Assembly (NCBI GenBank): GCA_959604355.1
Contig: CAUHAO010000003.1
Location: forward strand, 210 to 64,209
Reading direction: 5' to 3'
Source of the DNA: an uncultured Eubacteriales bacterium
GTDB lineage: Bacteria; Bacillota; Clostridia; Oscillospirales; UBA644
Length of the DNA: 64,000 bases
Shown: piece by piece, positions 9,089 to 39,073 of the stretch
How the letters are laid out: the number at the start of each line of letters is the position of its first letter
Position numbering within the stretch: position 1 is the first letter of the stretch
The notes under the pieces: generated by a model
What the model was told of the DNA's origin: nothing
The model's database searches: none
What the model saw: the letters and a program-made list of their open reading frames with translations, nothing else
Made by a program: the position numbers and the translations under genes

Positions 9089-9115
9089 GACGGGGGCCTT
9101 GTGTCCCCGTCTTTT
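9089..9115 (+). terminator. Rho-independent terminator after GT4 gene
   Basis: GACGGGG-gccttgtgt-CCCCGTC followed by TTTT. Confidence 0.6.
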
Positions 9116-9220: not shown

Positions 9221-9249
9221 TTGACAAAAAACGTAAGATACTGTATAAT
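9221..9249 (+). promoter_or_regulatory. Sigma-A type promoter for first CBM9-like gene
   Basis: TTGACA (9221-9226), a 17-nt spacer, then TATAAT (9244-9249) with TG at -15/-14. Confidence 0.5.
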
Positions 9250-9299
9250 ATTATTAAAGATCAAAGCAAATAATAACTGAAAATACGGAGGAGTATTTT

Positions 9300-10502
9300 A
9301 TGAAAAAAACATTGCTTGCGATTTTATTGACCGCAGCGATGGTCGTCGCGTTTGCTGCCGGCGCTTTCGCTGAGGTGGAGATCCCAGAGGATGATTTACC
9401 GTATATGCCGACTATTACCTGCGATAAGATTAACTACGGTACCCCGAAGGTCGACGGTAAGGTCGATGATCTGTACGCTACGACGTTCCAATCCAGGACT
9501 TCCACTCTCGCCAACGTTTATAACTATCAGGAGGCCGCAGAGGAATCCAACGCTCAGGGTGTTACATATATTCTTTGGGACGAGGATTTCATTTACATCT
9601 GCACTGAAGTTTCCGACAGCACGATCCTTTCTCAGGGCGAAGACTGGATATGGGAAAATGTTACTAAGTCCGGAGGACCCTGGTCTAATGACTGCGTTGA
9701 AATGCATATAGCATGGTACGGAGAAGACGATGACTCAACCACCGCTCAGAAGTGGGGTGTCGATGCTTACGGTTATCTTCTCTACACCAACTACGGTGAC
9801 GTTTACTATGAAGGTTACGAAGATGCTTACGCAAAGACTTCCGTTGATAAGAAAAACGGCAAATATGTAGTTGAAGTTGCCATTCCTAATGCCGAAGGTC
9901 TCGGCGAAGGCGACCACCTCGGTTTCTGCCAGCAGCTCAACGATATCGTTGACTTCGGCGGTGATGAAGGTCAGGCCCGTTACGCATGCTATTTCGGTAT
10001 GCAGGCTCCCTGGATGTTCGTGTATGAATTGGTAGACACCACCGGAGGATCCCACGGCGGAGAAGAGCAGACAGACGCTCCTACGGAAGAACCCACACAG
10101 GCTCCTACCGATGCGCCCACACAGGCTCCTACCGATGCACCCACCCAGGCTCCCACGGAAGAACCTACACAGGCTCCTACCGAGGCACCCACCCAGACCC
10201 CCACGGAAGGACCTACACAGGCTCCCACCGATGAACCCACCCAGACCCCCACGGTAGAACCCACGCAGGCTCCCACAGGTGAAGAACCCACAGCAGATCC
10301 TTCCGGAGAACCTACCGAAGAGCCTACGCAAGAGCCTACCAATGCTCCCACAGACGCACCCACCAATCCACCTACTGCTGCACCCACACAGGAGGCTACG
10401 GAATCCCCTGCTAAAAAAGGTTGCGGATCCGCAGTCATCAGCGGTGCGGCGGTTGTAATGCTCGCCTGCGCGGCAGCTGTCGTTCTTAAGAAAAAAGACT
10501 GA
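9300..10502 (+). CDS. Secreted CBM9/DOMON-like carbohydrate-binding protein with Pro/Thr linker and Cys-containing C-terminal sorting-type tail (paralog 1)
   Basis: Strong RBS ggagga. Signal peptide ends AFAAGAFA|E. CBM9-like strings are present: KVDGKVDDLY, YILWDEDFIYICTEVSD, NDCVEMHI, YVVEVAIP, LGFCQQLNDI. A long (PTxAPTx)n linker follows. The tail is KKGCGSAVISGAAVVMLACAAAVVLKKKD. Confidence 0.85.
   Translation: MKKTLLAILLTAAMVVAFAAGAFAEVEIPEDDLPYMPTITCDKINYGTPKVDGKVDDLYATTFQSRTSTLANVYNYQEAAEESNAQGVTYILWDEDFIYICTEVSDSTILSQGEDWIWENVTKSGGPWSNDCVEMHIAWYGEDDDSTTAQKWGVDAYGYLLYTNYGDVYYEGYEDAYAKTSVDKKNGKYVVEVAIPNAEGLGEGDHLGFCQQLNDIVDFGGDEGQARYACYFGMQAPWMFVYELVDTTGGSHGGEEQTDAPTEEPTQAPTDAPTQAPTDAPTQAPTEEPTQAPTEAPTQTPTEGPTQAPTDEPTQTPTVEPTQAPTGEEPTADPSGEPTEEPTQEPTNAPTDAPTNPPTAAPTQEATESPAKKGCGSAVISGAAVVMLACAAAVVLKKKD
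10071..10405 (+). repeat. Coding Pro/Thr-rich tandem repeat (linker) of paralog 1
   Basis: Iterated 24-nt units encode PTQAPTDA / PTEEPTQA variants. Confidence 0.8.
10413..10499 (+). other. C-terminal tripartite sorting-signal-like tail (K-K-G-C-G-S / hydrophobic helix / KKKD)
   Basis: 29 codons with the Cys codon TGC at 10422-10424. The sequence is identical to the paralog 2 tail. Confidence 0.6.
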
Positions 10503-10647
10503 TTGAAAGTTGAATGAAATGTGAAAGAGGACTTGTAAAAGCCCTCTTTCACGTTCAAAAAGTGTCAATTTCACCTAACGACCTATATAAACACGTAGAC
10601 AAAATAAACACGCAGACAAATCAAACATTTACCGCAAGGAGGTCATC

Positions 10648-11913
10648 ATGAAAAGGATAACCGCGGTCATAATTTTTGCGGCGATTCTCATTTCTTTGCT
10701 CGCCGTAAGCTCTTTTGCTTCTTTTGAAGTGCCCGAAGAAGAGCTCCCGTATATGCCGACTATTCCAAACGACAAGATCAATTACGGTACACCGAAAATC
10801 GACGGCGTCGTCGATGATATATATGCCAACACTTTTCAATGCACATCATCCACTGTTGCTAACTGGGATAACGGAAACGGCGTTGTGAGTGATTCCGATG
10901 CTCAGGGCACGACCTATATACTCTGGGATGAATATTGGGTCTATTTCTGCACGGAAGTATATGACAGTACAATCCTTTCTCAGGGCGAGGACTGGATATT
11001 CAACGGCACGCATTGGGGCGGCCCGTGGATGAATGACGCAGTCCAGATATTCCTTGCATGGCACGGCGAAGACGACGACGCGACAACATATCAGAAATGG
11101 GGTATGGACGCCTACGGAATACTCCTATATACCGTCAACGACTCTTTGTATTACGAGGGCTATGAAGAGGCCTACGCCGTAGCGAAGATGGATAAAAAGA
11201 ACAGGAAATATGTTATTGAAATGGCTATTCCGAATGCGGAAGGGCTGACGGAGGGCGATTTCCTCGGTTTTTGTCAGCAGATCAACGATATTGTTGACTT
11301 TGCGGGAACCAACGAACAGGATGGCTGTGCCCGTTGTGCATGTTATTTCGGATATCAGCAGCCGTGGCTGTTCCCGTATGAGCTTGTAGACGACGGCTCA
11401 AATCCTCACGTGTACGAAACGGGCGACGCTCCTACGGAAGATCCTACACAGGCTCCTACCGATGCCCCCACACAGACCCCCACGGAAGAACCCACGCAGG
11501 CTCCCACGGAAGAACCCACACAGGCTCCCACAGATGCACCCACCCAGGCTCCCACGGAAGAACCTACACAGGCTCCTACCGATGCACCCACCCAGACCCC
11601 CACGGAAGGACCCACACAGGCTCCCACCGATGAACCCACCCAGACCCCCACGGTAGAACCCACGCAGGCTCCCACAGGTGAAGAACCCACAGCAGATCCT
11701 TCCGGAGAACCTACCGAAGAGCCTACGCAAGAGCCTACCAATGCTCCCACAGACGCACCCACCAATCCACCTACTGCTGCACCCACACAGCCTTCCACAC
11801 AGGAGGCTACTGAATCCCCTGCTAAAAAAGGTTGCGGATCCGCAGTCATCAGCGGTGCGGCGGTCGTAATGCTCGCCTGCGCGGCAGCTGTCGTTCTTAA
11901 GAAAAAAGACTGA
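10648..11913 (+). CDS. Secreted CBM9/DOMON-like protein with Pro/Thr linker and Cys-containing C-terminal tail (paralog 2)
   Basis: RBS aaggagg. The architecture matches 9300-10502. The N-terminal domain is clearly diverged by eye, but the last ~110 aa are near-identical. Confidence 0.85.
   Translation: MKRITAVIIFAAILISLLAVSSFASFEVPEEELPYMPTIPNDKINYGTPKIDGVVDDIYANTFQCTSSTVANWDNGNGVVSDSDAQGTTYILWDEYWVYFCTEVYDSTILSQGEDWIFNGTHWGGPWMNDAVQIFLAWHGEDDDATTYQKWGMDAYGILLYTVNDSLYYEGYEEAYAVAKMDKKNRKYVIEMAIPNAEGLTEGDFLGFCQQINDIVDFAGTNEQDGCARCACYFGYQQPWLFPYELVDDGSNPHVYETGDAPTEDPTQAPTDAPTQTPTEEPTQAPTEEPTQAPTDAPTQAPTEEPTQAPTDAPTQTPTEGPTQAPTDEPTQTPTVEPTQAPTGEEPTADPSGEPTEEPTQEPTNAPTDAPTNPPTAAPTQPSTQEATESPAKKGCGSAVISGAAVVMLACAAAVVLKKKD
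11425..11820 (+). repeat. Coding Pro/Thr-rich tandem repeat (linker) of paralog 2
   Basis: Same PTxAPTx unit family as 10071-10405. The 3' ~300 nt is almost identical to paralog 1. Confidence 0.8.
11824..11910 (+). other. C-terminal tripartite sorting-signal-like tail
   Basis: KKGCGSAVISGAAVVMLACAAAVVLKKKD, with the Cys codon at 11833-11835. Confidence 0.6.
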
Positions 11914-11959
11914 TTGATAAAACGGGATTTATCCGAAAAAATTAAGTCATAAATCGAAA

Positions 11960-11994
11960 AAAGACGCCGATGGCTTGACTGTCGGCGTCTTTTG
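11960..11994 (+). terminator. Rho-independent terminator after paralog 2
   Basis: AGACGCCGA-tggcttgactg-TCGGCGTCT followed by TTTT. Confidence 0.6.
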
Positions 11995-12003
11995 TTGTAA
12001 AAT
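11975..12003 (+). promoter_or_regulatory. Possible promoter for lgt-like/CPBP pair, embedded in the terminator
   Basis: TTGACT (11975-11980), a 17-nt spacer, then TAAAAT (11998-12003). Confidence 0.4.
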
Positions 12004-12036
12004 ATACGCAGAAGGATCATGAAAAGAGGCAGCACG

Positions 12037-12813
12037 ATGTATCCCTACAAAGTTTTCTTCGGAATGACGCTGTACGAATTGTTTATCGTCGTCGGTATCA
12101 TTTGCGCGCTCATTATATTCAGGCTGTTGTCGGACCGCGAAGGCGTGCGGGCGAAGCTTTATAATTTTGTCGTTTTTGACGGCGTCGCCGGTGTCGCCGT
12201 AGGATTTTGCTGTGCAATTTTCGCGCAGGCTGTATATAATTATATAGAAAACGGCATCTTTACAATTGATAAGGGCACGGGAATGACGTTTTACGGCGGA
12301 TTTATCGGCGGCGCGGCGATGTTTTTTGCGATATACTTTGCAGTCGGCGGAGTGATATTCCGTGATGGATATCATAAAGAAAAACTGCCGCGCATCCTCG
12401 ATATGCTCGCGGCGGGCATCGTGGCGGCGCATGGGTTCGGGCGGATAGGCTGTCTTATGGCAGGATGCTGCTACGGCAGACCGACCGAGGCATGGTACGG
12501 TGTGTGGAATGAATATCTTGCATGCAGGACCGTGCCCGTTCAGCTTTTCGAGGCGCTGTTTTTGTTTGCCCTCAGCGCATTTCTTGTCCGTCGCTTCGTA
12601 AAAGGAAGAAGATGCGGTATCGCCGTCTACATGGTTCTCTACGGCGTATGGCGTTTCTTCATAGAATTTTTCCGCAGCGATGACCGCGGCGAGACTGTTC
12701 TGTCGGTCTTTTCACCATCCCAGCTTACCGCGATAATCCTTGTCGCCGTCGGCGCGGTGATACTCATATCATTCCGTATGAAGTCGCGAAAAAGAAGGTT
12801 GACTAATGATTAG
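12037..12813 (+). CDS. Prolipoprotein diacylglyceryl transferase (Lgt) family protein, divergent paralog-type
   Basis: Polytopic membrane protein with Lgt-like blocks: GMTFYGGFIGG, HGFGRIGCLMAGCCYG, VPVQLFEALF, YGVWRFFIEFFRSDDRG. ATG 12037 (RBS aaagagg) is preferred over ATG 12019 because the putative promoter ends at 12003. Confidence 0.8.
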   Translation: MYPYKVFFGMTLYELFIVVGIICALIIFRLLSDREGVRAKLYNFVVFDGVAGVAVGFCCAIFAQAVYNYIENGIFTIDKGTGMTFYGGFIGGAAMFFAIYFAVGGVIFRDGYHKEKLPRILDMLAAGIVAAHGFGRIGCLMAGCCYGRPTEAWYGVWNEYLACRTVPVQLFEALFLFALSAFLVRRFVKGRRCGIAVYMVLYGVWRFFIEFFRSDDRGETVLSVFSPSQLTAIILVAVGAVILISFRMKSRKRRLTND

Positions 12814-13606
12814 AAATAAGAAGCGTACAATATATTATATTATAATGGCTGTATTCGCACTGCTTCTCATCGTTGTTGAGAGAATCGGCGGGCCATTTGC
12901 ATCCGACGCAGGTCTCGACGCTATGATCCGAAAGGCTGTCAGCTGCGCCTGCGGAAGTGTCGTTTTTATTATCGCTGCGGCAATGTTCGGCTACCGTATT
13001 TTCGGCCGAGGAGCAGAGCCTCTCGGCAAAGCGCTGCTGTTTTCTCTGCCGTGTTTTTGCGCAGCCATAAACAATTTTCCGATAATCTCGGTGCTCAACG
13101 GCGACTGCAGGCTCGCCAAACCGTGGTATTTCGTCGCGGCGCTCGCAGCGGAGTGCCTTATGATAGGACTTTTTGAAGAGGTTACTTTCCGCGGCGTCAT
13201 ATTTCTCATGGTTCTTGAAAAACGGCGAAAAACCGTATGGGATATTTTCATTTCCGTCGTTATCACGTCCGCGGTGTTCGGAGTGATACATCTGACGAAC
13301 ATCCTCATGGGTGCGGGCGTCGGTGGAGTAATAATGCAGATAGGATATTCGTTCCTCATCGGCGGAATGTGCTCTGTCGTGCTTATAAAAACAAGAAACA
13401 TATGGCTGTGCGCCCTTATTCACGGTATTTTCGATTTCGGAGGATATTTCCTTTCGTCTGTCGGAGAAGGAACGATGTGGGATACTGCGACAGTCGTTCT
13501 GACCGTTTTTTTGTCCGTTGCCGTAGCTGTTTATGTGGTATACGCGCTCATTCATACCGATCCTGCTGCGCTCGGCAAATTGTATGCTTCCGACGAAAAC
13601 GACTGA
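12806..13606 (+). CDS. CPBP family (CAAX-type, Abi/PF02517-like) intramembrane glutamic endopeptidase
   Basis: All three CPBP motifs are present: EExxFR (LFEEVTFRG), FxxxH (FGVIH) and HxxxD (IHGIFD). It is multi-TM. The start overlaps the lgt-like stop by 8 nt, which suggests translational coupling. Confidence 0.85.
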   Translation: MIRNKKRTIYYIIMAVFALLLIVVERIGGPFASDAGLDAMIRKAVSCACGSVVFIIAAAMFGYRIFGRGAEPLGKALLFSLPCFCAAINNFPIISVLNGDCRLAKPWYFVAALAAECLMIGLFEEVTFRGVIFLMVLEKRRKTVWDIFISVVITSAVFGVIHLTNILMGAGVGGVIMQIGYSFLIGGMCSVVLIKTRNIWLCALIHGIFDFGGYFLSSVGEGTMWDTATVVLTVFLSVAVAVYVVYALIHTDPAALGKLYASDEND

Positions 13607-13654
13607 AAATAGAAGGGAATTTTCGTTAAATCGTTGCAAATATGGAAATAGGAC

Positions 13655-13683
13655 TTGACAAAACGGTAAAAAAATATTATAAT
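13655..13683 (+). promoter_or_regulatory. Sigma-A type promoter for paralog 3
   Basis: TTGACA (13655-13660), a 17-nt spacer, then TATAAT (13678-13683). Confidence 0.5.
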
Positions 13684-13731
13684 ACAGTCAGCAAGCTATA
13701 AGCTAGAAAGTTATTATTTCAGGAGGAAATT

Positions 13732-14727
13732 ATGAAAAAGACTTTTCTTGCACTTGTCCTTGCGGTTGCTCTGATGGCGGCTCTCGCTGTCGGTTCTCTT
13801 GCAGGGTATGTGGCAGAGATTCCCGAGGAAGATCTTCCTTATGCGCCCACCGTTCTTTTCGATAAGATCAATTACGGTTCTCCGAAGGTTGACGGTGTTC
13901 TCGATGAGATCTACGCTACATCTTTCCAGGTAAGAACTTCTTCCCTTACTAATTACGGTGAAGAATCCGCTACCGCATCCGCTGTTACCTACATTCTTTG
14001 GGACGACGCTTACTTCTATTTCTGCACTGTCGTCAACGACAGCACCATCCTTTCTCAGGGTGAAGAATGGGTAGAAGAATGGCTCGGCAAAAACGGCGGT
14101 CCTTGGGCAAATGACTGCGTCGAACTTCACATTGCATGGAACGGTGAAGACGATGACTCTACCACATCTCAGAAGTGGGGTATGGACGCGTTTGGTCATG
14201 CTCTTTACACCAACTACGGTCTGACCTATTACGAAGGCTACGAAGATGCTTTCGGCGTTGCTGTTAAAGATACCGCTGCAAACACTTATACTGTCGAGAT
14301 CGCTATCCCGAACGCTGAGGGCCTTACCGAAGGCGACGCTATAGGTTTTGAGATGCAGCTCAACGACCTCATTGACTTTGGCGGAAACGGCGGCTCTGCT
14401 CGTATAGGTTGCTTCTTCCTGTGGCAGCAGCCTTGGAACTTCGTTTATGACCTCATCGATGACGGAACCAATCCTCACGATGTGGTAGTCGTTCGTCCTA
14501 CCGATGAACCCACCGAACCTGCTACGAATCCTCCCACAAGCGAACCCACGAGCGAACCCACAGATGCTCCTACAAACGAACCCACAGACGCTCCTACCAA
14601 TGCACCCACTAATGAGCCCACACAGCCCTCCGAACCCAAATCCGGATGCGGTTCTGCGGTCATCAGCGGTGTAGCAGTAGTAATGCTCGCGTGTGCAGCA
14701 GTTGTTGTTCTTAAGAAGAAAGACTAA
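13732..14727 (+). CDS. Secreted CBM9/DOMON-like protein with short Pro/Thr linker and Cys-containing C-terminal tail (paralog 3)
   Basis: RBS aggagga and signal peptide ...AVGSLAG. The same CBM9-like strings occur: KVDGVLDEIY, YILWDDAYFYFCTVVND, NDCVELHI, YTVEIAIP. The tail is KSGCGSAVISGVAVVMLACAAVVVLKKKD. Confidence 0.85.
   Translation: MKKTFLALVLAVALMAALAVGSLAGYVAEIPEEDLPYAPTVLFDKINYGSPKVDGVLDEIYATSFQVRTSSLTNYGEESATASAVTYILWDDAYFYFCTVVNDSTILSQGEEWVEEWLGKNGGPWANDCVELHIAWNGEDDDSTTSQKWGMDAFGHALYTNYGLTYYEGYEDAFGVAVKDTAANTYTVEIAIPNAEGLTEGDAIGFEMQLNDLIDFGGNGGSARIGCFFLWQQPWNFVYDLIDDGTNPHDVVVVRPTDEPTEPATNPPTSEPTSEPTDAPTNEPTDAPTNAPTNEPTQPSEPKSGCGSAVISGVAVVMLACAAVVVLKKKD
14496..14640 (+). repeat. 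Coding Pro/Thr-rich repeat (linker) of paralog 3
   Basis: PTDEPTEPATNPPTSEPTSEPTDAPTNEPTDAPTNAPTNEPTQ. Confidence 0.7.
14638..14724 (+). other. C-terminal tripartite sorting-signal-like tail
   Basis: K-S-G-C-G-S + 19-aa hydrophobic helix + KKKD, with the Cys codon at 14647-14649. Confidence 0.6.
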
Positions 14728-14739
14728 TAACCGAATAAA

Positions 14740-14779
14740 ATATCAGGCAGGCCTTTTTCGGGTCTGCCTGATATTTTTA
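14740..14779. terminator. Bidirectional terminator between convergent genes
   Basis: 11-bp stem ATATCAGGCAG / CTGCCTGATAT followed by TTTTT. Confidence 0.7.
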
Positions 14780-16938: not shown

Positions 16939-19416
16939 ATGAAAAAACTTCTTACTGCTTCCGTCGCCTTTGTACTTGTCGCAGCAATGGTGTTTGCTTT
17001 CGCGGCTTGCACGAAGACTCCGACGGTCGTAACGTTTACCGGAGACTATACCTTTGAAGATTCTGTCTCCACTCTGTCCGCTAACTGGAACAGACATACT
17101 TATCAGACTGAAGATGAATCCTATCCTTTGGACTTCATTATGAGTGGTCTTTACACCTTTGTGTTCAACGACGAACTCCACCCTGTTGAAGGTAAAGACG
17201 CTTATAAGGGCTACAAAATCATTCCCGACATGGCTGAAAGTGATCCTGTTGATGTCACCGAAGCTATCAAGGCTGCACATCCCGAATTCGGTATTCCCGA
17301 ATCCGCAAAGAAGGGCTATGCTTACACCATCGATCTTAACAAAGAATGCGTATGGCAGGACGGCACTCCCATCAATGCTGAAACCTACGTTTACTCCATG
17401 CAGCAGATGCTCGACCCCGCTCTGAAGAACTACAGAGCTACCGACTATTTTGAAGGCGACTTCTGCATCGCTAATGCAAAGAACTACTACTATCAGGGCC
17501 AGACTGCTTACAATGTTATCGGCGTAACTACTTCCGATTATCTTAAATCCGGCAAACTTGAAGACCTCTATATTGATTGCTGGAACTTCTGGAATGCTGA
17601 AGGTTATGTTGATGCCCAAGGCAATACCTGCCCCCAGTGGGTTTCCGTTCTTGACGAAACCGTTTACGGCGAAAACGTTAACGACGCTTTCTCCGGTAAA
17701 GATCTCTATGATACTTATTTCGCTCCCGGCGCACCTTACGAAAGCTTTGCTGCCGAGTATGTAGCATATAAGGTATCTTATCCCGCTGACTATGCTTGGA
17801 GCAACGTCGGTATCTACGCTTCCGGCGACTATCAGATTACACTTGTTCTCGGTAAGTCTCTCGCAGGCTTCAACCTCCTTTACAACCTCTCCGGTAACTG
17901 GCTGGTTTACAAGGATCTTTATGAAGCATGCAAAAAGCAGATCGGTGATACCGATGCTTGGGCTAGCACCTACTGCACCAGCGTTGAGACCACAATGTCC
18001 TACGGTCCTTACAAGCTGGTTGAGTATCAGGCAGACAAATCCATGCGTTTCGAAAGAAATGAGAATTGGTTTGGTTATAAAGACGGCAAACATGTCTATG
18101 TAGACCCCGAAGACGGCAAGACCTATCCTATGTATCAGACCACTGCCATCAACTGCCAGGTTGTTGCAGATGCTGCTACAAGAAAGCTCATGTTCCTCAA
18201 AGGTCAGCTCATGTCTTACGGACTCCAGGCTGAAGACTTTGCTACATACAGAGATTCCGAATACTGCTATGTAACTCCCGATGAAACCATCTATTTCTTC
18301 ATCTTCAACGGTTACATGGATGCTATCAAGAATCGTGAAGCAAATGAAGCTTTTGACCAGACAAAATACGATCTCGAGACCCTGACCCTCAAGACATTCA
18401 GAAAAGCAGTTGCTGTTACCTATGATAAGGAACTCCTCTGCGCTACGATTTCTCCCTCCAGATCCGGCGGCTACGGTCTTATCGGCTCCAGCTACATTTA
18501 CGATCCCGAGACCGGCGCTAAATACCGTGATACCAAACAGGCTAAACAGGCTCTCTGTGACTTCTACAGCGTTGATGTAAGCAAGTTCGACAGCCTTGAT
18601 GAAGCGGTTGCTTCCATCACCGGTTACGATCCGGAAGCTGCTAAGGCTCTCTATACTCAGGCATTCAACGAAGCTTTGGAACTCGGTTATATAACCGATG
18701 CCGATAACGACGGCAAGTCCGACCAGACCATCAGAATCGAATATGCATCCTCCGCTACAAGCGACTTCATCCAGAAGACTCTCGCTTACCTCAACGAGAA
18801 GATGCTCGAAGTTCTTGTCGGCACACCTTTCGAAGGCAAAGTCGAATTCTATGAATCCGCTCCTCTCGGAAACAACTGGTCCAACAACATCCGTAACGGT
18901 TTGTCCGATACCGTTCTCGGCGGTTGGGGCGGCTCTGCTCTTAACCCCTTCAGCGTCACCGACTGCTACACCAATCCCAACAGACAGTATGACGCTAAGT
19001 GGTTCGATGCTTCCAAGGTTTCCTTCACTCTCAACGTTGATGTTGCAGGTGTCGAAGCGGCTGCTCCTGTTAGAGAAGATGTCACCATGACTCTCGAACA
19101 GTGGTCTCTTGCCCTTAACGGCGAAACTGTTACTGTCGGCGATAAGAGCTATTGCTTCGGCGACGGCATCGCTGATGTCGAGACCAGACTTGATATCCTT
19201 GCAAAGATTGAAACAACCGTTCTCCAGACATACGACTACATCCCGATGCTCCAGAACGCCGGTATGTCTCTGCTTTCTCAGCAGGTATACTATATCGTCG
19301 AAGAGTACAATCCGATTATGGGTCGCGGCGGCATTCAGTACATGAAGTACAACTACAATGACGCTGATTGGGCAGCATATGTTGCAACCCAGCCCGACGG
19401 TCAGCTCAGCTACTAA
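16939..19416 (+). CDS. ABC transporter substrate-binding lipoprotein, peptide/nickel (family 5) type, unusually large (825 aa)
   Basis: Lipobox VFAFAAC at the N-terminus. Its position ahead of OppB/C/D/F-like genes and its general family-5 SBP character support the call; the family was judged by eye only. Confidence 0.8.
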   Translation: MKKLLTASVAFVLVAAMVFAFAACTKTPTVVTFTGDYTFEDSVSTLSANWNRHTYQTEDESYPLDFIMSGLYTFVFNDELHPVEGKDAYKGYKIIPDMAESDPVDVTEAIKAAHPEFGIPESAKKGYAYTIDLNKECVWQDGTPINAETYVYSMQQMLDPALKNYRATDYFEGDFCIANAKNYYYQGQTAYNVIGVTTSDYLKSGKLEDLYIDCWNFWNAEGYVDAQGNTCPQWVSVLDETVYGENVNDAFSGKDLYDTYFAPGAPYESFAAEYVAYKVSYPADYAWSNVGIYASGDYQITLVLGKSLAGFNLLYNLSGNWLVYKDLYEACKKQIGDTDAWASTYCTSVETTMSYGPYKLVEYQADKSMRFERNENWFGYKDGKHVYVDPEDGKTYPMYQTTAINCQVVADAATRKLMFLKGQLMSYGLQAEDFATYRDSEYCYVTPDETIYFFIFNGYMDAIKNREANEAFDQTKYDLETLTLKTFRKAVAVTYDKELLCATISPSRSGGYGLIGSSYIYDPETGAKYRDTKQAKQALCDFYSVDVSKFDSLDEAVASITGYDPEAAKALYTQAFNEALELGYITDADNDGKSDQTIRIEYASSATSDFIQKTLAYLNEKMLEVLVGTPFEGKVEFYESAPLGNNWSNNIRNGLSDTVLGGWGGSALNPFSVTDCYTNPNRQYDAKWFDASKVSFTLNVDVAGVEAAAPVREDVTMTLEQWSLALNGETVTVGDKSYCFGDGIADVETRLDILAKIETTVLQTYDYIPMLQNAGMSLLSQQVYYIVEEYNPIMGRGGIQYMKYNYNDADWAAYVATQPDGQLSY

Positions 19417-31956: not shown

Positions 31957-32333
31957 GCACCCCCGTTTGTGTGGTTCCTGTAGCCGTGTTTGTCGCGGTC
32001 GTTCCCTGTCACAGCACTTCACGGCGCAAATATTTCACCGCTGTAATCAAAGAGTGCCGCTCCGCCAAAGCCGGATTGATAACTTGGATTTATTATAACT
32101 CAAAACAACGGAGATTGCAAATGAAGAATATTTTATCATTCGTCCAATGTGTTTTTAATTATGTCTGACACGCGTCTTCTCGTGTTCACAAAACTCCCAG
32201 TGCAAAATCTTTTCAAAATCCTATTGACAAAATCAGGAAAATATGTTATCATATGATAAAAGGAGTCGAGACTCCATTTATTTTGGGCAAATATAATCAC
32301 AAATTTACCAGGACAAATATTTTAGGAGAGCAT

Positions 32334-32954
32334 ATGACAATTGGTGAAGTTGCGGTTGTCCGAACAGGCCTTGTTACCGCAAGAAAAAAGAAAGATGCAT
32401 CTTCCTTGCGATCATTTGATTATCGGCTTTTGAATCTAAAATGTATCGCAAATGAAGGTTATATTGAAAAAGCTTATATTGAACCATACGAATTATCGGA
32501 AGAGTTGAAAGAGGGCTACCTGACTCGGATGGGAGATATTCTTATCAGACTAAGCGCCCCCTATACAGTAGTCATGATTGATCAACCGGATTTGTGCGGA
32601 ATTGTCATCCCCTCCCACTTCGCAATCATTCGTGTTGATAAACGTTACGCAGTGCCAGAATATGTGTTTTGGTCGTTGCGACGTGACAAGAACAGAATAA
32701 CGATGATGCAAAACAGTAGCGGAAGTACTGCTTTTGGGACAATCAGTTCGGGGCTGATCGCCTCGCTGTCGATCACACTTTTACCCATACAAGAGCAGAA
32801 GATAGTTGGTGATCTGATGATTCTTTCGGAGCGCGAGCAAGAGTTAATGCAAATGCTTGCCACAGAAAAGAAAAAATATAACACCCTGCTTTTGAACCAA
32901 ATCTACGATAATATGAAAAGAGGTAATATAAATGACAACCAAACAAAACATTGA
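32334..32954 (+). CDS. hsdS: Type I restriction-modification specificity subunit, half-size (single TRD)
   Basis: 206 aa with one target-recognition domain plus the conserved helical region LLPIQEQKIVGDLMILSEREQELMQML. ATG 32334 follows aggaga. It overlaps hsdM by 23 nt. Confidence 0.75.
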   Translation: MTIGEVAVVRTGLVTARKKKDASSLRSFDYRLLNLKCIANEGYIEKAYIEPYELSEELKEGYLTRMGDILIRLSAPYTVVMIDQPDLCGIVIPSHFAIIRVDKRYAVPEYVFWSLRRDKNRITMMQNSSGSTAFGTISSGLIASLSITLLPIQEQKIVGDLMILSEREQELMQMLATEKKKYNTLLLNQIYDNMKRGNINDNQTKH

Positions 32955-34488
32955 AAAAGTACTTTGGAACGCATGCGACAGCTTCCGCGGAAAAATTGAC
33001 AGCTCACGATATAAGGATTATATCCTTTCAATGCTTTTTGTGAAATATCTGAGCGATGTATACGCATACACTCGCAAGAAATACAGTGAACAGTATGACG
33101 GAAACGAGGAACGTATTGCCCGTGCGATGAGCCGTGAGCGTTTTGTCATGGACGAAACCTCAACCTTTGATTACCTCTACAAAAACAGAAACGATACGGC
33201 TATCGGTGAAAAAATCAATATCGCTCTTGCGAATATTGAAAAAAACAACAGCGCTAAGTTACATAACGTGTTCCGGGCCATTGATTTCAACTCTACCGTT
33301 GATTTCGGTGAGGTTAAAGAGAAGAATGCAATTCTCAAAAATCTTCTCGAGGATTTCAAGGACCTTGACCTCTCCCCGGATCAGCTCGACAATGCAGACA
33401 TCATCGGAGATGCCTACGAATACATGATTGCTAACTTTGCATCCGATGCGGGAAAGAAGGGCGGCGAGTTCTACACCCCAAGTATGGTTTCTGAGCTGGT
33501 TGCAAGATTGATTGCACCTAAAGAAAATGATCGTATCTACGATGCAACCTGCGGAAGCGGCGGTCTTCTTCTCAAAGCGTACAAGCAGGTAAAGAGCCGG
33601 AAAGTGGCGCTTTACGGGCAGGAGCAGAATATGCAGACATGGGCGCTCTGCCGCATGAATATGTTTTTGCACAATGTAGACGACGCAACTATTTGGCAAG
33701 GCGATACGCTTTCCAACCCCGGAAACATCAAGGACGATAAGTTGATGAAATTCCAGTGTATTTGTGCGAACCCACCATTCTCGCTTGACAAATGGGACAG
33801 CGGATTTCTCTCGGGTGCGGTGGACGAAAAAGGCAAGCCCAAGGAAAAGATGTCTGCGGAACTTGATCCGTTCAGGCGCTTCGATTGGGGCATCCCGCCC
33901 ACATCCAAAGGCGATTACGCATTCGTCATGCATATGCTGCACAGCCTGGACGATGCCACGGGACGCATGGGCATCATTCTCCCTCACGGTGTACTCTTCC
34001 GCGGTGCAGGCGAAGGAAAAATTCGCCGCACCATTATCGAGAGCTTTAACTTTCTTGATGCTGTCATCGGGCTTCCCGCAAACCTGTTCTACGGTGCAGG
34101 TATTCCCGCCTGTATTCTGATTTTCCGCAAGGATCGCGGAACGAATAACAAGGTTCTCTTTGTGGATGCAAGTGGCGAAGGACACTATGAAAAAGGCAAG
34201 AATCAGAACATTCTGCGTGAGTGCGATGTTAAGAAGATCGTTGACACCTATGTTCAGTATAAAACCGATATTCATTATGCGGACGAGCCCAAGTTCAGCC
34301 ATGTGGCTACCCTTGAGGAGATCGCCGAAAACGATTACAATCTTAATATCCCACGCTATGTCGATACTTTTGAGGAAGAAGAATTGATCGACATCGACGA
34401 GGTGAAACAGAATATCGCCAACATCGAGGCAGAGCTTGCCGAGGTGCAGGCGCAGATGAAGAAGTATATGGAGGAGCTTGGGTTATGA
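32932..34488 (+). CDS. hsdM: Type I restriction-modification DNA methyltransferase subunit M (N6-adenine)
   Basis: HsdM N-terminal domain (LWNACDSFRG), AdoMet motif YDATCGSGGLL and catalytic NPPF (CANPPFSLDKW). Confidence 0.95.
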   Translation: MTTKQNIEKVLWNACDSFRGKIDSSRYKDYILSMLFVKYLSDVYAYTRKKYSEQYDGNEERIARAMSRERFVMDETSTFDYLYKNRNDTAIGEKINIALANIEKNNSAKLHNVFRAIDFNSTVDFGEVKEKNAILKNLLEDFKDLDLSPDQLDNADIIGDAYEYMIANFASDAGKKGGEFYTPSMVSELVARLIAPKENDRIYDATCGSGGLLLKAYKQVKSRKVALYGQEQNMQTWALCRMNMFLHNVDDATIWQGDTLSNPGNIKDDKLMKFQCICANPPFSLDKWDSGFLSGAVDEKGKPKEKMSAELDPFRRFDWGIPPTSKGDYAFVMHMLHSLDDATGRMGIILPHGVLFRGAGEGKIRRTIIESFNFLDAVIGLPANLFYGAGIPACILIFRKDRGTNNKVLFVDASGEGHYEKGKNQNILRECDVKKIVDTYVQYKTDIHYADEPKFSHVATLEEIAENDYNLNIPRYVDTFEEEELIDIDEVKQNIANIEAELAEVQAQMKKYMEELGL

Positions 34489-35513
34489 GCGAAGGAAAAG
34501 ATTTGACTATCCGAAACAGTACAGCTGAATTTTTGATTTTTGAAAAGCAGGCTCACGCCGATTCCATAGAAGTTCGTTACGAAGACGAAACATTGTGGCT
34601 TACACAAAAAATGATGTCGGATCTTTTTGATGTTGAATCCAACACGATAACTTATCATTTACAAGAGATTTTTAAGTCTGGGGAATTGGATAAAGAATCA
34701 ACTGCTCGAAAATTTCGAGTAGTTCAAACCGAAGGCACTCGTCAAGTCAGTCGAGAAGTTGACCACTACAATCTTGATGCCGTAATTTCTGTTGGATATC
34801 GTGTAAATTCTATTCGCGCAACCCAGTTCAGACGCTGGGCGACACAGGTTTTGAAGCAGTATGCGATCACCGGTTACATAATTGACCGCAAACGTATGGA
34901 AAACGGCGCGTTCCTCGGTGAAGACTATTTTGAGCGTTTGCTGGAAGAAATCCGCGAGATTCGTTTGAGTGAGCGTAGATTTTATCAGAAGGTTACCGAC
35001 ATATATGCAACCAGTGTGGATTACGATAAAAATGCACCGACAACCAAGCTCTTCTTTGCTACCGTTCAGAACAAGATGCATTATGCCATCACGGGCAATA
35101 CAGCTCCGGAATTGATTATGGGGCGTGCTGACAGCAGCAAAGAACATATGGGTCTTACTTCGTGGGAGCGTTCCCCCGACGGCAAGATTCTCAAATCCGA
35201 CGTTTCGGTCGCCAAAAACTATCTTACCAAGGATGAACTTGATTCGCTTGGCAGAATCGTCAACTCCTTCCTCGATGCCGCAGAAGATTTCGCAAAGCGT
35301 AAGATCCCGATGACGATGGAAGACTGGGCAAAACGGCTTGATATGTTCTTGGCGTTTACCGGACGCGATATATTGACCGATGCGGGTACAGTTTCAAAAA
35401 TCGCAGCTAAAGCTTACGCCGAAAGCGAATTTGAAAAATACCGTGTGACACAAGACAAGCTCTATCAGAGTGATTTTGACAAGCTGGTGGAGAAGACGAA
35501 AAAGGAGAAGTAA
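34485..35513 (+). CDS. rhuM: RhuM family virulence/Fic-DOC-associated protein (common insert in type I R-M operons)
   Basis: The sequence IEVRYEDETLWLTQKMMSDLFDVESNTITYHLQEIF...VISVGYRVNSIRATQFRRWATQVLKQY is characteristic of RhuM. ATGA overlap with hsdM. Confidence 0.8.
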   Translation: MSEGKDLTIRNSTAEFLIFEKQAHADSIEVRYEDETLWLTQKMMSDLFDVESNTITYHLQEIFKSGELDKESTARKFRVVQTEGTRQVSREVDHYNLDAVISVGYRVNSIRATQFRRWATQVLKQYAITGYIIDRKRMENGAFLGEDYFERLLEEIREIRLSERRFYQKVTDIYATSVDYDKNAPTTKLFFATVQNKMHYAITGNTAPELIMGRADSSKEHMGLTSWERSPDGKILKSDVSVAKNYLTKDELDSLGRIVNSFLDAAEDFAKRKIPMTMEDWAKRLDMFLAFTGRDILTDAGTVSKIAAKAYAESEFEKYRVTQDKLYQSDFDKLVEKTKKEK

Positions 35514-35514
35514 A

Positions 35515-36105
35515 ATGAACGAAGTTATTTTAGTTATTGTTACAGCATTGATTTCTGGCTTACTTGCTACATTAGTAACAATTTGGTGGCAAAAACGCTC
35601 TGCCATACATAAAAGCAAAATGAAAATATTTGAAACACTAATGGCTTATAGATATCGAATTATTGCAGAGCCAAGTGTACATGCGTTGAACTCTATAGAT
35701 GTTGTTTTCTATAAAGATGATAATGTTAGGCGTGCTTATACTGATTTTTTGAACGAAGCTGCGAAAAGGCCAGAAATGAATCCCAATACCGGTGACAAGC
35801 ATTTGAAACTTCTTGAAGAAATGGCAAAAGCTTTGAACTTAAAGAACATCCATTGGGACGATATTAAGCAAGCTTATTGTCCTAACGGACTTCTGGAAAA
35901 AATCCAAGAAGAAGAGATGTTGAGAAAAATGCAACTGCAAACTACCGCAAACGCTATCGAAGCACAAAAGAATCAGCAGAATACTCCTACTCAAGATCAA
36001 ATTAACCAACAACTAATGTTACAGCTTCTTCCTGAACTAATTAGAAATCCTGACGGATTTAAGAATCTTATGGAGTTAGGAGAGAGGTTTGGTACTAAAA
36101 AATGA
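35515..36105 (+). CDS. Hypothetical N-terminally membrane-anchored protein
   Basis: 196 aa. ATG 35515 follows aaggaga. It has one TM helix (VILVIVTALISGLLATLVTIWW) and then a helical soluble domain. ATGA overlap with the downstream hsdS. Confidence 0.5.
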   Translation: MNEVILVIVTALISGLLATLVTIWWQKRSAIHKSKMKIFETLMAYRYRIIAEPSVHALNSIDVVFYKDDNVRRAYTDFLNEAAKRPEMNPNTGDKHLKLLEEMAKALNLKNIHWDDIKQAYCPNGLLEKIQEEEMLRKMQLQTTANAIEAQKNQQNTPTQDQINQQLMLQLLPELIRNPDGFKNLMELGERFGTKK

Positions 36106-37406
36106 CCCTTCAAGTTAAACAACGAATTGAACAAATCCGGCGGGGCGAGGTGCCGGAGGGATATATCATAATAAAAGATGGAGTGTATCCTTCCGATTGG
36201 ACAATCAAGACAATGAAGCAGTGGATTACACTTGAAGAACGTCCGGTCACATTACAAGATGATGAAGAATATGAATTGGTGACAGTTCGCCGTGCATATG
36301 GAGGAGTAGATTCAAGAGGCATCTACAAGGGAAAAGAAGTGTTAGTCAAAACATACTTCTCAGTAAAAAAGAACGACTTTATTATTTCCAAAAGACAGAT
36401 CGCACATGGAGCATGTGGTCTTGTTCCTGATAGATTGAATGGAGCGGTTGTTTCTAATGAGTATAATGTATTCAAGGCAAAAGAAGGGACAAACATCCAA
36501 TTTTTTAACCTTATGATGCAACTCCCTCATTATAAAAGGCTTTTTTATCTTATGAGTGATGGGGTACATATTGAAAAACTCTTATTCAAAACAAGCGATT
36601 GGATGAAACGAAGTTTGGCCATACCCCCTCTCGCCGAGCAAGAGAAGATTGCCGAGATTTTGCAGACGCAGGACAAGCTGATTGAGCTTCAACAGAAGAA
36701 AATTGAAGAGCTGAAACGGCTCAAAAAAGTGTATCTGTCGAAAATGTTCCCGAAAAAAGGCTGCAATGTCCCCGAAATCCGTTTCCCGGGTTTCACTGAC
36801 CCTTGGGAACAGCGCAAGTTGGGGGAAGTTGTTAGTCAGATAACAACAGGACTTAATCCTCGTGATAATTTCAAACTTAACTCAGGTGGTAATAACTATT
36901 ATGTTACTATTAAAAACTTTGAACACGGAGTCCTGCATTTAGATGACAAATGCGACTTTGTTGATGATGAGGCACTGACTCTAATTCAAGCTCGTAGCGA
37001 CCTAAAAAAAGATGATATTTTATTTACAAGCATAGGGCGTGTGGGAGATTGCTATTTGATTGAAAATACGCCGAAAAATTGGAATATCAATGAGTCAGTA
37101 TTCTCATTACGACCAAATAAAAATATTGTAGAACCTGTATACCTTTTCCATACCATTCACAGTGATATCGTGCTAAATCAAATCCTAAATAATATTACGG
37201 GAAGCACATTTAAAAGTATAAAAATTGGTGACTTAAAAAATGTGATTATTCCTATCCCACCAAAGCAAGAACAAGAGCAAATTGCTAAGCTAATTACTGC
37301 TTTGGAGAGCCTTATCACCCTTCATCAGCGTAAGTTGGATGAAGAACAAAAAAAGAAGAAAGCCCTGATGCAGATTCTGCTGACGGGAATTGTGAGAGTA
37401 AAATAA
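36102..37406 (+). CDS. hsdS: Type I restriction-modification specificity subunit, full length (two TRDs)
   Basis: Two TRDs are separated by the conserved helices PPLAEQEKIAEILQTQDKLIELQQKKIEELKRLKKVYLSKMF and PPKQEQEQIAKLITALESLITLHQRKLDEEQKKKKALMQILLTG. Confidence 0.9.
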   Translation: MTLQVKQRIEQIRRGEVPEGYIIIKDGVYPSDWTIKTMKQWITLEERPVTLQDDEEYELVTVRRAYGGVDSRGIYKGKEVLVKTYFSVKKNDFIISKRQIAHGACGLVPDRLNGAVVSNEYNVFKAKEGTNIQFFNLMMQLPHYKRLFYLMSDGVHIEKLLFKTSDWMKRSLAIPPLAEQEKIAEILQTQDKLIELQQKKIEELKRLKKVYLSKMFPKKGCNVPEIRFPGFTDPWEQRKLGEVVSQITTGLNPRDNFKLNSGGNNYYVTIKNFEHGVLHLDDKCDFVDDEALTLIQARSDLKKDDILFTSIGRVGDCYLIENTPKNWNINESVFSLRPNKNIVEPVYLFHTIHSDIVLNQILNNITGSTFKSIKIGDLKNVIIPIPPKQEQEQIAKLITALESLITLHQRKLDEEQKKKKALMQILLTGIVRVK

Positions 37407-37415
37407 GGAGAAAAA

Positions 37416-38822: not shown

Positions 38823-38838
38823 ATGGAGGTGAAATATT

Positions 38839-39012
38839 ATGGCAACCAATCCCCCGAAGGGAGACGGTCACAGAAACGGCGCTGTAAAAGAGCGTTCACA
38901 GACCTACAATCCCAAGACGCAGACATGGACAAAGCGTGACACAAATACCGGCAGGTTCATGGATGGCAAGAAAGACGGGACACCGTTCAAAGGTGTCCGC
39001 AAGGAAAAATAA
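38839..39012 (+). CDS. Small basic hypothetical protein (57 aa; below the ORF-track cutoff)
   Basis: Hand-translated as MATNPPKGDGHRNGAVKERSQTYNPKTQTWTKRDTNTGRFMDGKKDGTPFKGVRKEK. Excellent RBS ggaggtg 7 nt upstream. A hairpin follows at 39017-39053. Confidence 0.5.
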   Translation: MATNPPKGDGHRNGAVKERSQTYNPKTQTWTKRDTNTGRFMDGKKDGTPFKGVRKEK

Positions 39013-39073
39013 ATCCGCAGACAGCGAGGCGTTTTTCGTCTCGCTATGTCTGCTTTAGATAGGAGGTGTCAAT

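Follow-up and report, generated by a model that had tools for sequence, protein, structure and literature searches.

A candidate C-terminal protein-sorting cassette with an Lgt-family protein and a CPBP protease in gut and rumen Clostridia

Introduction

How might secreted proteins be held at the surface of a Gram-positive cell if their C-terminal tails carry an invariant cysteine and none of the known sorting motifs? The question is raised by positions 9221 to 14779 of a stretch of 64,000 nt (referred to below as the window, meaning the whole stretch of DNA that was analysed) from an uncultured Eubacteriales bacterium (assembly GCA_959604355.1, contig CAUHAO010000003.1). Here three paralogous genes for secreted, carbohydrate-binding-like proteins with such tails are arranged around two overlapping genes, one for a protein of the Lgt family and the other for a CPBP/Rce1-like glutamic intramembrane protease. 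Comparison with related loci makes it likely that these genes form a self-contained cassette for C-terminal protein sorting, akin to the myxosortase (CPBP) systems, with counterparts in other Clostridia of the gut and rumen. A functional linkage of the Lgt paralogue, the CPBP protein and the Cys-tailed proteins is strongly supported.

It is useful to recall what is already known about such systems. CPBP 'myxosortases' were proposed by Haft in 2023 (doi 10.1101/2023.06.07.544157) for four Cys-containing C-terminal signals, the pairs being MrtX, MrtC or MrtP with MYXO-CTERM, MrtJ with JDVT-CTERM, MrtS with Synerg-CTERM and MrtA with CGP-CTERM (same source and PMC11980579). In 2025 the Wall lab found that MrtX cleaves MYXO-CTERM, the generic motif of which is GCGC, in a Cys-dependent manner (mBio, PMC11980579). 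According to the same article the enzyme that lipidates the cysteine has yet to be identified, and an 'Lgt-like acyl-transferase' is put forward as the leading candidate, as MrtX works in E. coli. The original prediction for this DNA, which was made from the sequence alone, had referred, correctly, to the proposal of a CPBP protease for MYXO-CTERM. As far as CPBP is concerned, the idea thus follows an established concept, and the new elements are the host group (monoderm Clostridia), the motif and the genetically linked Lgt paralogue. The prediction had also named no described locus that unites an Lgt paralogue, a CPBP protease and their substrates; our literature searches likewise found no description of an Lgt/CPBP/Cys-tail cassette.

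Results and Discussion

Anatomy of the locus

The five open reading frames (ORFs) of the cassette are all on the forward strand, at the coordinates that had been predicted. The genes of two putative substrates, P1 (9300-10502, 400 aa) and P2 (10648-11913, 421 aa), are followed by the Lgt-family gene of the CPBP-coupled type (12019-12813, 264 aa), the CPBP gene (12806-13606, 266 aa) and the gene of a third putative substrate, P3 (13732-14727, 331 aa). The ATG of the CPBP gene at 12806 lies before the stop codon of the Lgt-like gene at 12811-12813, i.e. the two genes overlap by 8 nt. Pfam finds a CBM9_1 domain (E = 3e-11, 2.7e-12 and 6e-15, respectively) and a PT repeat in P1, P2 and P3, and it assigns the two enzymes to the families expected of them, namely LGT (PF01790, E = 7.7e-31) and CPBP (PF02517, E = 1.6e-15).

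P1, P2 and P3 begin with signal peptides of the type recognised by signal peptidase I (SPase-I), the predicted cleavage sites being AFA/E, SFA/S and SLA/G, respectively; a lipobox was looked for in these N-termini and none was found. All three end in a tail composed of K-[KS]-G-C-G-S, a 19-residue helix and KKKD. The tail reads KKGCGSAVISGAAVVMLACAAAVVLKKKD in P1 (10413-10499, forward strand) and in P2 (11824-11910, forward strand), and KSGCGSAVISGVAVVMLACAAVVVLKKKD in P3 (14638-14724, forward strand), with the cysteine at Cys375 (codon 10422-10424), Cys396 (codon 11833-11835) and Cys306 (codon 14647-14649), respectively; the P1 tail fits the consensus of 40 tails that is described below. Coordinates, Pfam matches and translation agree in all respects with the earlier description of three co-directional paralogs with SPase-I signal peptides, CBM9-like domains, Pro/Thr linkers and GCGS tails.

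The CBM9 N-domains of P1 and P2 are 64% identical, while their linkers and tails are 91% identical at the protein level, and the DNA is 94% identical over the last 444 nt. As the 3' parts are so much more alike than the CBM9 parts, they seem to have been homogenised, and the comparison indicates gene conversion or a recent homogenisation of linker and tail. The PT linkers at 10047-10418 and 11422-11817 consist of 24-nt (8-codon, PTxAPTxx) tandem repeats.

Conservation of the Lgt-CPBP pair

Both enzymes have many relatives, which carry generic names in the databases. More than 1,800 homologues of the Lgt-like protein were found at E <= 1e-10, and the CPBP protein has 470 homologues at E <= 1e-5 in a word search and 259 representative clusters at E <= 1e-30 in an exhaustive search, the closest being about 60% identical to the window protein. 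Nearly all homologues of either protein come from metagenome-assembled genomes (MAGs) of gut or rumen Clostridia.

The two genes stay together in these organisms. In the first four loci inspected (L001-L004) the Lgt gene is followed by the CPBP gene with overlapping codons, in neighbourhoods that are otherwise unrelated. When species-representative genomes were searched with an Lgt alignment and flanks of up to 10 kb were collected, a CPBP gene of the window type was found directly downstream of Lgt in 61 of the 80 loci obtained; stop and start codons overlap in most of these 61 pairs, and the overlaps cluster at 4, 8 and 11 nt. The reciprocal scan was centred on CPBP in metagenome contigs, a locus being considered informative if it had enough upstream sequence (n = 63). 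The coupled Lgt type lies upstream of CPBP in 48 of these 63 loci, and a second, stand-alone Lgt type (see below) in none of the 63. In one lineage the two proteins are fused: P0423 (557 aa), which occurs on three contigs from three samples, consists of an Lgt part (1-256), a charged, K/E-rich linker and a CPBP part (286-542), and both Pfam domains are called. The adjacency that the original prediction hoped to see in relatives is deeply conserved, and it recurs beside genes with G-C-[GK]-S tails. Conserved translational coupling and a Rosetta-stone fusion suggest that Lgt and CPBP act together, and we regard this comparative pattern as strong evidence for a shared pathway.

The 15 CPBP loci without an upstream Lgt belong to a more distant CPBP subfamily (about 40% identical) from high-GC organisms. 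In three of the four loci of this subfamily that were inspected, a gene for a polyprenyl-phosphate sugar-phosphate transferase of the MraY/WecA type (NAHNMIDGLDGL) is found upstream (L122:4180-5370, L126:7179-8285, L132:7169-8305); the idea that this upstream gene encodes a Cys-less substrate was rejected in favour of the MraY/WecA-like assignment. A GDPD-like gene, recognised by eye only, follows the distant CPBP gene in these three loci, making this another conserved CPBP neighbourhood tied to envelope lipid chemistry. A membrane protein of the TMEM164 family (PF14808) is encoded immediately upstream of the pair in L175 (6070-6834, reverse strand) and about 5 kb upstream in L004 (4303-5133, forward strand). 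Eukaryotic members of the TMEM164 family are acyltransferases, and this neighbour could be a coincidence or a further lipid-handling partner.

The Lgt-like protein

The window protein matches PF01790 with 107.7 bits (cut-off 24.9) over model positions 10-239 of 240. Its AlphaFold2 (AF2) model (pLDDT 86) has a single structural match, E. coli Lgt (PDB 5AZB; probability 1.00, E = 3.4e-6, TM-score 0.60-0.64). From the work of Pailler (2012) and Mao (2016) we take Y26, H103, R143, N146, E151, G154, Y235, R239 and E243 to be the residues that are important in the E. coli enzyme. Six of these have counterparts in the window protein, i.e. Y19, R142, G153, Y208, R212 and E216 correspond to Y26, R143, G154, Y235, R239 and E243, and they are invariant in our alignment A1. 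In the alignment to 5AZB the other three are substituted: N146 by Cys145, E151 by Cys150 and H103 by Tyr92. As a result the Lgt signature GRxGNFxNxExxG reads GRIGCLMAGCCYG in the window protein (12433-12480, residues ~139-154).

It was tempting to see a specialised enzyme in these substitutions (N146C, E151C, H103Y), and the original prediction had taken divergence as the mark of a dedicated Lgt. This part of the prediction had to be given up. The signature GR[IL]GC[LF]xxGCC[HY]G is found in both Clostridial Lgt families, and 107 of 120 stand-alone Lgt proteins show the Cys-substituted form. Similarly, the window protein stays below the equivalog cut-offs of NCBIfam (70 versus 118.9 bits for TIGR00544, 122.6 versus 334 bits for NF000778), and so does a stand-alone Clostridial Lgt (L029b) with 73 and 140 bits, respectively; because the latter fails too, the low scores are a lineage effect and no sign of a different function. 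N146 is reported to be essential in E. coli Lgt, and both Clostridial families may have a somewhat different active-site arrangement, to judge from their sequences.

The second Lgt family has 2,151 matches in Oscillospiraceae, Ruminococcaceae and other Clostridia, and it is 33% identical to the coupled Lgt. It stands alone, without CPBP, in six out of six contexts, in one of them between ribosomal-protein operons. A gene for a small transmembrane (TM) protein (117-180 aa) lies upstream of it, with a DUF4190 domain in five of the six contexts and with or without a Zn-ribbon; such units were seen in L085-L087, L168-L172 and L175-L178, the small gene being just upstream of an Lgt gene at about 10001 or 4001. 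We know of no description of this two-gene unit of a small DUF4190-type gene and a stand-alone Lgt.

Do the two types occur in the same cell? In L029 the second Lgt, 33% identical to the coupled one, is encoded 3.4 kb from the pair on the same contig. L175 also has both types on one contig, its type-2 Lgt being 69% identical to that of L029. At least L029 and L175 thus have a coupled Lgt that is a true paralogue, and the distribution of the two families suggests that the same probably holds for many more species. Whole-genome shotgun prefixes of type-2 Lgt from NCBI MAGs (JAZPYZ, DXAX, CALWUY) showed no overlap with the list of the pair type, and the P0251 contig has no Lgt-CPBP pair.

In the window, an Opp-type solute-binding protein (SBP_bac_5, 825 aa, 16939-19416, forward strand) has a classical lipoprotein signal peptide (MKKLLTASVAFVLVAAMVFAFAAC). 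As the organism encodes this lipobox lipoprotein, it needs an ordinary Lgt activity. Substrates for the lipidation of an N-terminal and, putatively, of a C-terminal cysteine are encoded less than 2.5 kb apart.

The CPBP protein

The protease gene product matches PF02517 with 57.6 bits (cut-off 22.4). All three motifs that had been pointed out are there, LFEEVTFRG, FGVIH and IHGIFD corresponding to EExxxR, FxxxH and HxxxN/D, and among 46 homologues E124, E125, R129, H162 and H206 are invariant while D210 is conserved in at least 90%. The AF2 model (pLDDT 91) has 8 TM helices. Searches of the protein against PDB by phmmer and hmmsearch gave no match, Rce1 (4CAD) included, and Foldseek with the model gave no match below E 0.3 and no alignment to 4CAD.

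C-terminal tails and their association with the pair

Tails were collected with a strict pattern, [GSKED]-C-[GKA]-[SAGT] followed by at least 15 uncharged residues and at least 2 K/R at the end. There are 26 such tails in 18 of 63 CPBP-positive loci (1.01 Mb) and none in 19 CPBP-negative loci (0.30 Mb). Most of them (21 of 26) are at most 420 nt away from the pair and all but one (25 of 26) are on its strand. A further 17 metagenome loci have the gene order tail protein, Lgt, CPBP. The control sequence, 119 kb with 355 ORFs, came from loci with an Lgt of the second family and from all other parts of the window; no strict tail was found in it. The three window tails are paralogous and hence not independent of one another; the motif recurs, though, in about 35 loci of other species and is absent from CPBP-less and control sequence, so the pattern goes far beyond chance.

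In total, 40 unique tails adjoin the pair in these ~35 loci. Their consensus has [K/E/S]-[G/S/K] at positions -3/-2 relative to the cysteine, Gly at -1 in 100% of the cases although the pattern permitted five residues, Cys in 100%, G (68%) or K (28%) at +1 and S (85%) at +2. After the motif come a helix start rich in Gly, a stretch of 17-22 uncharged residues and a Lys-rich basic end of 3-7 residues, and the distance of the cysteine from the C-terminus is 25-32 residues, with a median of 26. A signal peptide is present in each of the 38 tail proteins whose ORFs are complete. The passenger domains are unrelated (CBM9, Big_3, F5/8-type-C, GLUG, Flg_new, CBM30 or none, in proteins of 349-2150 aa), and only the tail and a Thr/Ala/Glu/Pro-rich linker are common to them. 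A tail that is shared by unrelated passengers and encoded beside an enzyme is the signature of a sorting signal with its cognate enzyme next door, like MrtJ and JDVT-CTERM.

The tails do not correspond to a known signal, in accordance with what had been predicted. Eleven tails were compared with the curated CTERM models (MYXO-CTERM TIGR03901, JDVT-, Synerg- and CGP-CTERM and others; E up to 10) and no meaningful match was obtained. Nearly all matches are below threshold and involve generic TM and basic regions; one tail reaches 17.9 against 15.9 bits with LPXTG_anchor, through the TM part only and with no LPXTG motif. An LPXTG-like pentapeptide before the TM segment is absent from P1-P3 and from the 40 tails. 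The 40-tail consensus also lacks the diagnostic features of the Cys-type signals, namely the second Cys of GCGC (MYXO), DP before a Leu-rich TM segment (JDVT), an invariant Pro in the TM segment (Synerg) and C-G-P (CGP).

A proposed pathway and the points against it

The proposed pathway runs as follows. The substrates would be exported by Sec through their SPase-I signal peptides and halted in the membrane by a stop-transfer function of the C-terminal tail. The tail, in which the G-C-[G/K]-S motif is followed by some 19 uncharged residues, Gly-rich at first, and by 2-4 Lys/Arg, is predicted to adopt an N-out/C-in orientation with the cysteine at the outer face. The CPBP-coupled Lgt paralogue would then move diacylglycerol from phosphatidylglycerol onto the thiol of this cysteine, and the CPBP protein, made from the same message by translational coupling, would cut off the helix and the basic cluster on the C-terminal side of the lipidated residue. 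This last step is modelled on the action of Rce1 after a prenyl-Cys and of MrtX on MYXO-CTERM. The end product would be carbohydrate-binding or adhesin-like proteins attached to the cell surface by a C-terminal lipid. We consider the full mechanism, i.e. S-diacylglyceryl transfer to the tail Cys and then cleavage by CPBP, to be fairly probable; we have considerably more confidence in a narrower statement, namely that the locus is a sorting cassette and that these tails are processed by its protease.

Several observations weigh against the pathway, at least in its complete form. The homologues all come from uncultured MAGs or metagenomes, and we infer every chemical step, from the choice of the cysteine as substrate of Lgt and the kind of lipid to the sequence of the reactions and the site of the cut. 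Paralogy of the coupled Lgt is established for L029 and L175 only. The Cys-substituted signature appears, on comparison of the two families, to be a Clostridial lineage trait and is not specific to the paralogue. Furthermore, a single nested subclade of a neighbour-joining tree, which comprises Borkfalkia, Scatosoma and relatives, takes in 17 of the 19 CPBP-less Lgt members, and in this subclade a DUF4870 gene lies downstream of Lgt, where CPBP would be. Lgt of the coupled type can thus occur with no protease gene linked to it. The linkage itself looks ancestral, since the CPBP-less members nest in this one subclade. The DUF4870 protein (about 150 aa, ...IPxVGxVFGILCG...ELPxxGKxRIIR) is found at L022:10941-11402 and L030:10898-11368, with equivalents in L024, L032, L034, L047 and L055.

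The substrates present two difficulties. In about two thirds of the loci with the pair, no tail gene was found up to 10 kb away; the same is true of L001-L004, which means that clustering of substrates with the pair is not universal. In the L029/L175 lineage, moreover, three signal-peptide proteins encoded directly downstream of the pair end without a cysteine, in x-T-G-F-A, a TM segment and KKRH. The genes are at L029:7011-10315 (forward strand, tail APATGFATVAIALAAVGSGAYVVSKKRH) and L175:603-4356 (reverse strand, tail AGKTGFATIALAVVAVSSGAYVVSKKRH). These tails may be a variant signal for the same protease, which would mean that a thiol is not required in every case, or an unrelated, sortase-like signal on which a variant sortase acts. 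With regard to the PATGF tails of L029 as sortase signals, the L175 equivalents (AGKTGF) have no Pro. The three proteins are paralogous, and one of them has Laminin_G_3 and sialidase N-terminal domains.

The topology of the protease raises a further problem. Family-wide, the side of the CPBP protein formed by the N-terminus, L2, L4, L6 and the C-terminus has 17.1 K/R versus 3.1 on the other side; because of this bias and the cytoplasmic-type linker of the P0423 fusion, the protein is predicted to be N-in/C-in with cytoplasmic TM4-5 and TM6-7 loops, the same as Rce1. The catalytic residues appear to be around mid-membrane, judged from sequence alone. Manolaridis is said to have described in 2013 an Rce1 cavity that is open to the cytoplasm. 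The tail cysteine would be at the opposite, outer face, and a cut immediately after it is not obviously feasible. This tension between a cytoplasmic cavity and a cysteine at the outer face is common to all published myxosortase models.

Alternative explanations

One alternative is that sorting is the work of CPBP alone. The protease would then cleave the G-C-[GK]-S tails while the cysteine is modified in another way or serves only for recognition, and Lgt, co-expressed for regulation, would serve N-terminal lipoproteins or have some other role with membrane lipids. MrtX processes MYXO-CTERM in E. coli without a dedicated partner (PMC11980579), and the tails without a cysteine that L029 and L175 have next to the pair, the subclade of the coupled Lgt type without an adjacent CPBP and the catalytic signature common to both Clostridial Lgt families would all find a place in such a scheme. 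However, overlapping codons in most of the 61 pairs and a fusion into a single polypeptide speak for a shared pathway and not for loose co-regulation. Moreover, the sole invariant side chain of the 40 tails is a thiol between small residues, which is what Lgt acts on, and the same taxa have a stand-alone Lgt that can take care of housekeeping. We regard sorting by CPBP alone as unlikely. The coupling and the fusion fit equally well with an involvement of both enzymes in the maturation of classical N-terminal lipoproteins, with CPBP as an LnsB-like tailoring or scaffold partner, or as a protease that clears signal peptides, and with the Cys tails as ordinary anchors that happen to be encoded nearby. 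The window organism does make lipobox proteins, and the CPBP-fold protein LnsB works at the extracellular face on lipoproteins that carry an S-diacylglyceryl-Cys (PMC7387801, PMC13559823). Such a role does not account, though, for genes with SPase-I signal peptides, no lipobox and Cys tails at about 35 pair loci and never at CPBP-less or stand-alone Lgt loci, and the motifs of LnsB are divergent and non-essential while those of the window-type CPBP are invariant. No NlpC/P60 partner appears among the Pfam-annotated genes nearby. The cut made by enzymes of the Rce1 type falls C-terminal to a lipidated cysteine, and for an N-terminal lipoprotein this is the wrong side. A role of the pair in N-terminal maturation is, in our view, quite improbable.

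A third alternative is that nothing is processed, i.e. that the tails are permanent single-pass anchors, that the cysteine forms a disulfide or has no role and that Lgt and CPBP have nothing to do with them, CPBP being, for example, of the Abi or bacteriocin-immunity type. No processing is known, a plain TM anchor is found in many surface proteins of Firmicutes and most pair loci, as noted above, have no flanking tail gene. A permanent anchor would nevertheless hardly call for so strict a motif (G-C in 100%, S in 85%) at a fixed distance from the C-terminus of unrelated passengers, nor for tight same-strand linkage to the pair in many species, and the tripartite layout is that of proven sorting signals; we consider permanent anchoring the least probable of the explanations, and very improbable in itself. 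The reading that we prefer remains a cassette in which Lgt and CPBP act in turn on the Cys tails.

Comparison with known systems

It is instructive to compare the general features of the cassette with those of known sorting and lipidation systems. The closest analogy is provided by the myxosortases. In both cases the sorting enzyme is of the CPBP/Rce1-like kind and the tail is tripartite with an invariant cysteine, the G-C-G-S of the window being near the GCGC of MYXO-CTERM. Thr/Pro-rich linkers, the neighbourhood of enzyme and target (as in MrtJ/JDVT-CTERM) and the proposed logic of lipidation followed by cleavage are further similarities. There are also clear differences. The window CPBP stays far below the cut-offs of all Mrt models (bits/cut-off: MrtC 23.1/195, Mrt_core NF040914 22.4/100, MrtJ 19.9/75, MrtP 18.7/250, MrtS 17.7/130) and no CTERM model fits the tails. 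The host of the cassette is a monoderm Clostridial organism without a type II secretion system or an outer membrane, and the basic cluster is Lys-rich. The main difference is the Lgt paralogue that is coupled or fused to the protease, as no such partner has been reported for any myxosortase.

In comparison with the Lgt/LspA lipoprotein pathway, the cassette has an Lgt fold with counterparts of key Arg, Glu and Tyr residues (R143, R239, E243, Y26 and Y235), and a cysteine that follows Gly, is flanked by small residues and adjoins a hydrophobic helix at the outer face. The order proposed for the cassette, lipidation and then removal of the helix by an intramembrane protease, would also be the same. 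On the other hand, the helix of the cassette substrates lies on the C-terminal side of the cysteine and is N-out/C-in, i.e. the mirror image of a signal peptide, and there is no [LVI][ASTVI][GAS]C lipobox. Besides, the protease is of the CPBP type and not the aspartyl protease LspA, and the coupled Lgt is only distantly related (33% identity) to the stand-alone Clostridial enzyme.

The protease itself is best compared with Rce1 of the CAAX pathway (MmRce1, PDB 4CAD), with which it has in common the PF02517 family, the EExxxR/FxxxH/HxxxN/D motifs, a predicted N-in 8-TM topology and the concept of a cut after a lipidated cysteine. The substrates are different, those of Rce1 being cytosolic and prenylated with three residues after the cysteine, while those of the cassette would lie outside the cytoplasm and have some 25 residues after it, among them a complete TM helix. 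A CPBP-fold membrane protein that works on Lgt-modified (S-diacylglyceryl-Cys) proteins in a Firmicute, as is proposed for the cassette, is found in the LnsAB system of S. aureus. There the CPBP motifs of LnsB are divergent and non-essential and the partner, LnsA, is an NlpC/P60 acyltransferase (PMC7387801, PMC13559823). LnsB is not linked to lgt and works on N-termini, whereas the motifs of the cassette protease are invariant and the genes linked to it carry C-terminal tails; among the Pfam-annotated genes of the window and of the related loci examined there is no NlpC/P60 gene. Finally, the sortase/LPXTG, exosortase/PEP-CTERM, archaeosortase/PGF-CTERM and rhombosortase/GlyGly-CTERM systems resemble the cassette in as much as they combine a tripartite signal, a dedicated membrane enzyme and unrelated passengers. 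They rely on Cys transpeptidases or a rhomboid Ser protease, however, they recognise other motifs and they have no Lgt partner.

Regulatory signals and other features of the window

The limits of the finding fall on a sigma70-like promoter at the start and a terminator at the end. The promoter lies upstream of P1 at 9221-9249 (forward strand; TTGACA-17-TATAAT, 12/12), and a second one with the same match is found upstream of P3 at 13655-13683 (forward strand; TTGACA-17-TATAAT, 12/12). Upstream of the Lgt-like gene there is a promoter-like site at 11975-12003 (forward strand; TTGACT-17-TAAAAT, 10/12), which is a consensus match only. An intrinsic-terminator-like hairpin with an 18-bp stem and a T-run marks the 3' end of the cassette (14737-14777, forward strand), and another terminator-like hairpin (9089-9111) closes the GT4 gene upstream. 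The neighbours are ordinary chromosomal genes, namely GH3, amidase, EF-P and GT4 glycosyltransferase genes on the upstream side and genes of an ABC exporter and an Opp-type transporter on the downstream side.

A 275-aa secreted protein without a Pfam match is encoded at 762-1589 on the reverse strand. It ends in EPEVKNPETSDGNILLAASAAALLAVSYAFAVSYSKKKEN, i.e. an NPETS-DG motif, a TM segment and KKKEN, with no cysteine. This tail may be an NPXTG-like, sortase-type signal, and its presence points to the use of different kinds of C-terminal anchor in this organism. The region 32253-44030 is a type I restriction-modification island with HsdM (32932-34488), a RhuM-family insert (34485-35513) and HsdS (36102-37406), and a 1034-aa ORF at 40210-43314 is probably HsdR. 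The lower GC content (0.38-0.43) suggests that the island was acquired horizontally.

Conclusions

The cassette offers independent genetic evidence for the guess that an Lgt-like enzyme lipidates Cys-type sorting signals, as its Lgt paralogue is operon-coupled or fused to the protease, has putative substrates encoded next door and coexists with a separate, stand-alone Lgt for ordinary lipoproteins. It provides a genetic candidate for the lipidating enzyme and a compact test system of three small genes. We propose, tentatively and with slightly less than even confidence, that Lgt S-diacylglycerylates the cysteine of a helix of reverse topology and that CPBP then removes the helix, which would make up a 'C-terminal lipoprotein' pathway of monoderm Clostridia, and that by extension an Lgt-family enzyme would be the missing lipidation step for MYXO-, JDVT-, Synerg- and CGP-CTERM. 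If this is true, it would widen the known substrate topology of Lgt, an antibiotic target.

For the organisms themselves, the cassette extends Cys-tail sorting to Gram-positive Clostridia of the gut and rumen, and the tail motif G-C-[GK]-S followed by a TM segment and K/R can be used for annotating such proteins. In the gut microbiota, to judge from this finding, many surface proteins of the carbohydrate-binding or adhesin-like kind may be held by a C-terminal lipid, and not by a sortase or a TM helix.

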